A DNA stretch of 64,000 nt from Chitinophagales bacterium (GTDB lineage: Bacteria > Bacteroidota > Bacteroidia > Chitinophagales > LD1). Below are positions 31,221 to 31,462 of this stretch, in pieces. Under the pieces are notes generated by a model. That model saw only the letters and a list, made by a program, of their open reading frames with translations, made no database searches and was not told the DNA's origin. The DNA is taken from assembly GCA_035299425.1 (NCBI GenBank), contig DATGWP010000160.1:4929-68928 (forward strand), given 5' to 3'. Positions within the stretch are counted from its first letter, which is position 1, and each line of letters opens with the position of its first letter. The position numbers and the translations under genes were made by a program.

Positions 31221-31462
31221 TTTCGTTCACCAATTTTAGCTTTTACTTTCTTTGGCTTGAACCAAAGAAAGTAACAAAGAAAATTCAAGGCTGTGTGACT
31301 TTTGGCTAAAAATCATACCGTAAACCTAAACTGCATGAACTTGTGGCACGTTGCAACCTTTAGCGAACAAAAAAGCATGGCGCCGCGCCACTTCGAACAG
31401 CATGCAGTTTTTAACGGTTTACTACATGATTTTTTTGACGCCAAAATTCACAAGGCCTTTCC
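31221..31462. repeat. copy 1 of ~220-nt conserved intergenic element
   Basis: Roughly 85-90 percent identical by eye to 40128-40358. Contains a 13-bp hairpin at 31243-31274. Confidence 0.8.

Follow-up and report, generated by a model that had tools for sequence, protein, structure and literature searches.

IS200/IS605 elements use the lagging-strand template both for insertion and for excision (PMC5027513, PMC6006769). These elements and their gene-less derivatives (PATEs; IS608, ISDra2) are strand-specific and recognized by structure rather than by sequence, carry a small imperfect hairpin near both ends, and insert 3' of a fixed tetra- or pentanucleotide; they make no target duplication, and the derivatives are dispersed as non-autonomous intergenic copies. 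REP, BIME and REPIN sequences are intergenic, palindromic, often clustered, long-lived and conserved copy by copy, REPs being 20-40 nt long with a GT[AG]G foot, and are thought to be handled as single-stranded DNA by a single-copy HUH enzyme (RAYT, TnpA-REP). ERIC, Correia (NEMIS) and RUP sequences are imperfect intergenic palindromes of 100-250 nt with no coding capacity, in which compensated changes keep the hairpin and subfamilies occur per genome; none of these families extends beyond a genus or family, they act on transcripts that contain them, at the level of RNA, and Correia and RUP make TA duplications. The attC, sso, ssi and Frpo sites function as folded single-stranded DNA and have a conserved shape, extrahelical bases, a variable terminal structure and strand dependence. 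Here, an intergenic repeat occurring twice in a 64,000-nt stretch of DNA (the window; contig DATGWP010000160.1 of assembly GCA_035299425.1, positions 4,929 to 68,928, forward strand) was analyzed computationally and compared with these systems. The window belongs to a 4.9-Mb metagenome-assembled genome of an uncultured freshwater Chitinophagales. The element is a non-coding repeat of 190-250 nt, and we favor, at a probability of roughly 0.5, the reading that its family consists of non-autonomous elements whose active form is folded single-stranded DNA of the lagging-strand template.

As in IS200/IS605 elements, the orientation of the element strand favored the lagging-strand template, the fold was strand-specific and kept in structure rather than sequence, target duplications were absent, and the copies were dispersed, non-autonomous and intergenic. 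In contrast to those elements, it was built from one small hairpin plus a hairpin of ~170 nt, its ends could be placed only approximately, with no conserved motif at the left end, and none of the Y1 genes examined was bounded by it. With REP, BIME and REPIN sequences it shared the intergenic, palindromic and often clustered arrangement, longevity and per-copy conservation, in a genus where Y1 genes are abundant; however, it is 5-10 times longer than REPs, AT-rich and without a GTAG foot, carries a pseudoknot-like module, and, unlike a REPtron, was absent beside the Y1 genes examined. It resembled ERIC, Correia and RUP in size, lack of coding capacity, compensated changes and subfamilies, whereas its family spans a phylum, leaves no duplication, and is oriented with replication. 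With attC, sso, ssi and Frpo it would share a function in folded single-stranded DNA, along with the conserved shape, extrahelical bases, variable terminal structure and strand dependence; attC sites alternate with gene cassettes beside an integrase and sso and ssi are single sites on replicons, whereas the element was dispersed and in tandem without cassettes, and its flanking genes showed no link to an integrase, although no search was aimed at IntI. Judged by defining features, the element falls outside IS200/IS605, REP/RAYT, MITE (miniature inverted-repeat transposable element) and attC, and in its way of working it comes closest to the first two.

The initial annotation of the window had described two look-alike intergenic segments in the same orientation, about 9 kb apart, and the description was accurate. 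The direct repeat 31277-31462/40173-40358 (186 nt, 88% identity, same orientation) had a spacing of 8896 nt, with open reading frames (ORFs) on either side of each copy. The first hairpins (H1) were recovered in both copies with exactly the sequences and coordinates given before, as was the paired indel, H1 of copy 2 lacking both a 5'-arm C and the 3'-arm G that pairs with it. A loop A-to-C change between copies 1 and 2 was matched by a linker T-to-G change, and CTGCATG/CATGCAG in copy 1 corresponded to CTGCGTG/CACGCAG in copy 2, a further compensated change. The second helix, which had been drawn around the most diverged block of equal length, was also borne out: the GC helix GTGGC(A/G)CG ... 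CGCGCCAC enclosed 33 nt in both copies, without gaps between them, and most of the differences between the copies fell in this block. The helix was merely the top portion of the long imperfect hairpin, which, like the complementarity of the H1 loop to the 6 nt ahead of that hairpin, had gone unnoticed in the initial annotation, and in copy 1 it contained an A.C mismatch (GTGGCACG), with G at that position in the orthologue of a sister genome (G003). Coding was rejected: ORFs of 62-70 aa with TTG starts over both copies were not conserved, and other copies had indels in the apex and elsewhere.

Across the family, H1 was a perfect 9-14-bp A/T-rich hairpin with the loop CTTGAN, followed by an A-rich linker whose length rises with that of H1. 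The linker ended in N'TCAAG, complementary to the H1 loop, and its final G started the long hairpin; judging from the complementarity, loop and linker may form a pseudoknot or an alternative pairing. The hairpin of ~170 nt comprised helices P1-P4 with conserved asymmetric loops between them, in a design of 5' GGC-T-AAAAA facing 3' TTTTT-TTAAC-GCC that was repeated once higher up. Conserved unpaired AACTYG and CTCAAACAG bordered a variable apex of ~10 to >100 nt, and the H1-linker module was nearly invariant from Chitinophagales to Bacteroidales. Single-strand folds were far more stable than expected on either strand with RNA or DNA parameters (z = -6 to -7.5; 0 of 200 shuffles as stable), and DNA folds of two copies reached -48 and -51 kcal/mol (z ~-7). 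The covariance model preferred one strand, with 200+ bits against 35-43 bits on the other.

Covariation was analyzed in 105 copies aligned to the covariance model. Standard pairs made up 92.1% of pair cells in this structure-fitted alignment, which inflates pairing, compared with 63.9% after shuffling and 41-56% when partners were slid, and 43 of the 48 pairs had changed on both sides. H1 was 99.9% paired (five of seven pairs changed on both sides) and the H1 loop/linker pairing was 93.1% paired, its sixth pair covarying among UA (42), AU (28) and CG (17). RNAalifold on a MAFFT alignment of 23 sequences gave the same picture (29 of 48 pairs compensated). Selection on structure, which the initial annotation had read from the single paired indel, is thus strongly supported as selection on base pairing, and far beyond that indel. 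The changes were almost exclusively Watson-Crick: double-sided changes occupied 1356 cells and one-sided changes of the G-U type ~40 (27% vs. <1% of cells), and G.T and A.C mismatches were both rare, showing no strand asymmetry after removal of a single conserved U.G and of some columns that were misaligned. A fold so nearly restricted to Watson-Crick changes is unusual for an RNA family, and fits pairing at the DNA level or on both strands.

Orientation was compared with genes and with replication. All copies were intergenic, those with two called neighbors lying between convergent genes in 29 cases and between divergent genes in 16; between co-directional genes 20 were sense and 20 antisense, and a mean fraction of 0.48 of the nearby coding sequence was on the element strand. 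The Bacteroidota -7 box TAnnTTTG was not conserved on either strand, in or at the element. Placement was thus independent of transcription. Replication gave a different result, which draws on third-codon skew and complete genomes and not on the window genome alone. Copies on the same contig were nearly always co-oriented, even hundreds of kilobases apart. The gene-strand-corrected GC skew at third codon positions (GC3 skew) was positive on the element strand at 34 of 49 loci (nominal binomial p ~0.009, only indicative as the loci are non-independent), at 32 against 10 loci when |skew| exceeded 0.03, and total GC skew >0.03 was positive at 26 and negative at 5. The block pattern is the stronger evidence: on complete contigs the copies formed replichore-like blocks. 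G418 had + copies at 0.27-1.95 Mb and - copies at 2.00-3.56 Mb of 3.9 Mb (10/11 fit), G243 fitted with 16 of 18 copies, G214:C1 with 11 of 11 and one switch, G126 and G650 showed one switch each, G512 fitted with two exceptions, and on G214:C3 all 11 copies lay on the - strand. Accordingly, the strand that reads H1 first is usually the G-rich one, that is, the lagging-strand template that is single-stranded at the fork.

These results bear directly on a reading as structured non-coding RNA, be it from a small RNA gene in many copies or from a cis element that stabilizes, processes or terminates the transcripts containing it. Such an RNA would account for the very strong covariation, the covarying loop-linker pairing, the conserved unpaired motifs and the one-strand preference of the model, and on its reverse strand the element resembles a terminator, with a T-rich tract after a long hairpin. 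A terminator, however, needs a fixed orientation to its upstream gene, and the equal sense and antisense counts, the missing promoter box, the near lack of one-sided G-U changes and an orientation that tracks replication all speak against an RNA, as does variation of copy number and position between sister genomes. In Rfam 15, no model reached its gathering threshold in the window, copy 1 drew nothing beyond noise at E<=10, and 13 loci from other orders had no match at E<=0.01; families such as Flavo-1 and the 6S-like models were rejected on this basis, in keeping with the earlier statement that no named RNA family was recognizable. We consider an RNA quite unlikely. The initial interpretation consequently held in part: its proposals of selection on base pairing and of a MITE- or REP-like mobile element stood, the latter as the best-fitting option (multicopy, patchy, polymorphic between sister genomes, tandem-amplified and phage-carried), and its small RNA option was disfavored; a recombination site had been its third option. 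Heavy covariation alone does not imply RNA, and near-absent G-U pairs together with replication-linked orientation point to DNA.

The two window copies are part of a large family. A genome-wide search of the kind proposed in the initial annotation (BLAST, nhmmer) found 15 full copies in the window genome, 4 of type A and 11 of type B, the latter having the type A architecture with roughly half sequence identity by eye. With a covariance model built from 23 genus copies, whose E-values are rough, carriers were found in 32 of 40 genomes of the genus, 136 of 301 genomes (70 of 129 genera) of the order and 92 of 401 genomes (46 of 180 genera) of a phylum sample (E<=1e-6), with 1 to >20 copies per carrier. 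Inspection by eye showed that distant matches keep the parts of the element and its short conserved motifs. That only two copies existed, as a recent segmental duplication, had been named as the outcome that would overturn the first interpretation; the unrelated flanks, the 15 genome copies and the phylum-wide family exclude it. BLAST of a window copy against plasmid and phage collections gave no matches; the conserved H1 module of a distant copy, used as BLAST query, matched two plasmid records. The conserved H1-linker pattern matched 12 IMG/VR contigs, among which full copies were confirmed, and one 11.4-kb phage contig, encoding a large terminase, major capsid protein, GH108 endolysin and tail-fiber chaperone, carried three copies, all on one strand. 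Named carriers include a Chondrinema litorale plasmid and a Parabacteroides distasonis replicon. In the latter (NZ_OY725754; L185:2492-3070), two GC-rich inverted copies flank a gene for a 24-aa 'smalltalk protein' between an amidase gene and an HU gene, and the record is labeled a plasmid yet carries prmA.

No target-site duplication or target motif was detected, the 25-nt flanks of the 105 copies being without direct repeats, and no protein family recurred among 444 flanking ORFs. Retron msr/msd, a CRISPR-like array and omega or bridge RNA were rejected since reverse transcriptase, Cas, TnpB and IS110 genes were not recurrent beside copies, and the CRISPR-like array also because apices of array units were identical rather than spacer-like. 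The flanks count likewise against a MITE with very long terminal inverted repeats that a DDE transposase would mobilize by cut-and-paste, in which covariation would reflect co-evolving protein-bound ends and not folding. Its appeal lies in arms that are inverted repeats over their full length, in strictly Watson-Crick changes, in the multicopy, intergenic distribution enriched between convergent genes, and in MITE catalogues that list tens of thousands of elements in Bacteroidota (10.1101/2024.01.18.576219). In addition to the lack of a target-site duplication, the window genome yielded neither a longer element nor a transposase gene sharing these ends, the asymmetric bulges and the one-sided H1 module were kept phylum-wide, all ~80 arm positions covaried and not the termini alone, and a replication-linked orientation is unexpected for double-strand cut-and-paste. 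A DDE-mobilized MITE is therefore regarded as improbable.

Turnover was evident from the sister genome G003, which is ~94-95% identical to the window genome (G000): copy sites differed between the two, with gains and losses. The copy upstream of rpsL (copy 2) was present at its site in only 2 of 30 genus genomes (G000 and G029) and absent from G003. One G003 copy (L076, G003:C102) lay at the exact switch of synteny between G000 contigs C57:12434 and C128:29805, and this copy may mark the breakpoint of a rearrangement. Several lineages had tandem arrays in which element and spacer recurred together as near-identical units, the spacers being 60-170 nt long and free of ORFs, and housekeeping genes stood between inverted arrays. 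Given copies at synteny breaks and in inverted and tandem arrays, the element probably shapes genome rearrangement.

Action as folded single-stranded DNA is favored because the covariation is Watson-Crick only, the fold is strand-specific with conserved bulges and indifferent to transcription, the orientation follows replication, no target is duplicated, the distribution is patchy with turnover, and phages carry copies. We infer from these observations the following sequence of events. The functional strand (the window + strand) would fold into H1 with its loop-linker pairing plus the ~170-nt hairpin with two TTAAC bulges. As this strand is preferentially the G-rich leading-strand sequence, and hence the lagging-strand template, it would become transiently single-stranded at the fork, where a trans-acting enzyme specific for single-stranded DNA would recognize the folded strand and copy or move the element. 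Such action could explain why copies are dispersed or arrayed in tandem, why they turn over between sister genomes and why phages carry them. The enzyme would most obviously be of the HUH/Y1 type, and none of that type could be tied to the element.

Several observations weigh against this reading, beginning with the enzyme. Y1 genes of the IS200/RAYT type are unusually common here (8 Y1_Tnp in the window genome; present in 37 of 40 genus genomes), and the flanks of the 8 window-genome Y1_Tnp genes and of the 6 best genus Y1 genes held no element sequence, while one genome with many copies (G035) gave only a weak Y1-like match. A RAYT beside a truncated copy in G002 has its own GTAG-type REPs, and the repeats of Bacteroidetes RAYT subclass 2.6 are 24-nt GC hairpins unlike the element (PMC6006769 Table S1); a RAYT/REP link was rejected on the grounds of the Y1 flanks, the G002 REPs and the different subclass 2.6 repeats. 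The small subterminal hairpin, H1, is at the 5' side only, unlike IS200/IS605 ends. No clean pair of filled and empty alleles was found, the polymorphic G000/G003 sites being mosaics of several repeat families, so that the element ends and target could not be defined and transposition is something we infer. The strand bias also has exceptions: G094 leans weakly the other way, and G438 and G520 each have four matches that share one orientation at widely separated contig positions. Moreover, the loci are non-independent, and the model had shaped the alignments fitted to it. Finally, type B cores in the window genome were 94.5-96% identical, as opposed to 63% in the apices and 52-62% in the near flanks. 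Each copy would thus seem to be under constraint, or the cores alone to be renewed in some way; the conserved cores look like purifying selection on each copy, which suggests a host function over pure selfishness. The G002 REPtron itself (L143:1410-1980, G002:C1) is a Y1/RAYT gene bracketed by inverted hairpins GCGCACCGTAGGTGCCGCC / GGCGGCACCTACGGTGCGC, of the canonical GTAG type.

A host function of this kind could be a useful signal read in the single-stranded DNA of the fork, of the initiation or primosome-assembly type, a restart or pausing site, or a replication-polar landmark, in which spread would be secondary and each copy selected. The position of the functional strand on the lagging-strand template agrees with a signal, and so do the 95% identity of paralogue cores over that of apex and near flanks, the orthologues shared by G000 and G003 (99-99.6% identical vs. 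92-96% in the flanks), the near-invariant H1-linker module and the several co-oriented copies in phage genomes. Such a signal is harder to reconcile with a patchy distribution (absent from 8 of 40 genus genomes and more than half of the order sample), with a copy number of 1 to >20 and arrays of near-identical units, and with sites that are not conserved, as upstream of rpsL; nor is any essential process known to require such a site. We judge a host signal unlikely. More speculatively, and with appreciably more doubt than confidence, the family may represent a new class of fork-coupled single-stranded DNA element, phylum-wide and phage-carried, with a pseudoknotted recognition module and a long bulged hairpin as its defining parts and with an enzyme that is neither Y1/RAYT nor DDE (perhaps a conserved host or phage protein), or a lagging-strand signal that spreads like a transposon; in either case Bacteroidota would have a 'domesticated' system of the REP kind that no other group shares.

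Bacteroidota genomes, among them those of gut Bacteroidales, and Bacteroidota phages share in this family a large feature that had not been catalogued before. Its covariance model could annotate hundreds of intergenic regions that are now blank or miscalled as small ORFs, and the phage copies are a potential marker for linking phages to hosts. The question posed is which enzyme reads the fold at the fork.

Table 1. Features of the two element copies, in window coordinates. Whole-unit spans are approximate and include H1. C160 is the contig that carries the window.
Feature	Position	Strand	Evidence
Copy 1, type A, whole unit	31238-31462	+	Covariance-model match C160:36163-36393 (window 31235-31465), 211.5 bits
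Copy 2, type A, whole unit	40137-40358	+	Covariance-model match C160:45061-45289 (window 40133-40361), 216.2 bits
H1 of copy 1, 13-bp perfect hairpin, TTACTTTCTTTGG / loop CTTGAA / CCAAAGAAAGTAA	31243-31274	+	
H1 of copy 2, 12-bp hairpin, TTACTTTTTTGG / loop CTTGAC / CCAAAAAAGTAA	40142-40171	+	
Linker of copy 1, A-rich (31275-31283), then TTCAAG (31284-31289), complementary to H1 loop CTTGAA (31256-31261)	31275-31289	+	
Linker of copy 2 (40172-40179), then GTCAAG (40180-40185), complementary to loop CTTGAC (40154-40159)	40172-40185	+	
Long imperfect hairpin P1-P4 of copy 1, GGCTGTGTGAC... to ...TCACAAGGCC	31289-31457	+	Folds, consensus structure, covariation
Long imperfect hairpin of copy 2	40185-40353	+	Folds
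Variable 33-nt apex of copy 1, between GTGGCACG (31343-31350) and CGCGCCAC (31384-31391)	31351-31383	+	
Variable 33-nt apex of copy 2, between GTGGCGCG (40239-40246) and CGCGCCAC (40280-40287)	40247-40279	+	
Upper 3'-arm bulge TTAAC, opposite CCT-AAAC of the 5' arm	31411-31415	+	Motif TTTTTAACG kept in order and phylum copies
Lower 3'-arm bulge, TTGAC in copy 1, consensus TTAAC, opposite GGC-T-AAAAA	31435-31439	+	Conserved

Copy 1 lies between a saccharopine-dehydrogenase gene (+) and an HHH_3/ComEA-like gene (-). These three lie in the gap between rplL (29416-29790, -) and rplJ (32290-32820, -), which are ~2.5 kb apart, so that the usual rplJL operon is split (window 29416-32820). Copy 2 has a CPCC-domain gene (-) on one side and rpsL (-) on the other; it runs antisense to rpsL and lies 186 nt ahead of its start codon. 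The CPCC-domain gene (window 40503-40940), which stands between a XerC/D-like recombinase gene and rpsL, was absent at the same G003 site. GC3 skew around C160 was +0.118, which makes the window + strand the leading-strand sequence; the S12-S7-EF-G-S10-L3 and nusG-L11-L1-L10 blocks are all on the - strand (window 32290-39947) and would be head-on to replication. The gene order is unusual, with L3 followed by a 164-aa ORF and then tRNA-secE-nusG.

Other repeat families were also seen. One of ~115 nt (window 40400-40515) starts with the hairpin ACCGTTGGTTGAAACCAACGGCA and ends near GGGTGCGCCT(A/G)TTTGT; the window has one copy and the same G003 site three in tandem, and the hairpin was also found at C139 of the window genome. 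A small element of ~70-85 nt with GAATTCGTGAATCCATTT...AAATGGATT (window-genome C77:74450-74520 and C227:~52000; L078:2540-2625 in G003:C120) had inserted at one and the same place in three separate copies, drawn from both subfamilies: the run of T that precedes the conserved (T)AACG bulge in the 3' arm. The bulge may be the target of another mobile element. A larger repeat with ~32-bp inverted ends GCGTAGGCnnnGCCCATnAnTGTTCGAAAC carried differing hairpin-rich cargos, two of which were type B copies (window-genome C15:30022-30379, C77:76340-76605, C188:10740-11165 and C77:74178-74625). At C160:49667-49776 (window 44739-44848), G000 had a GC-rich hairpin repeat CCCCTCCTT...AAGGAGGGG where G003 had the element studied here (L078:2293-2672), which suggests that repeat families replace one another at intergenic sites. 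A ~200-nt insertion relative to G003 at window-genome C105:23350-23549, flanked by direct repeats AAACTTCGGAAGT(T/C)TA, is probably another mobile repeat.

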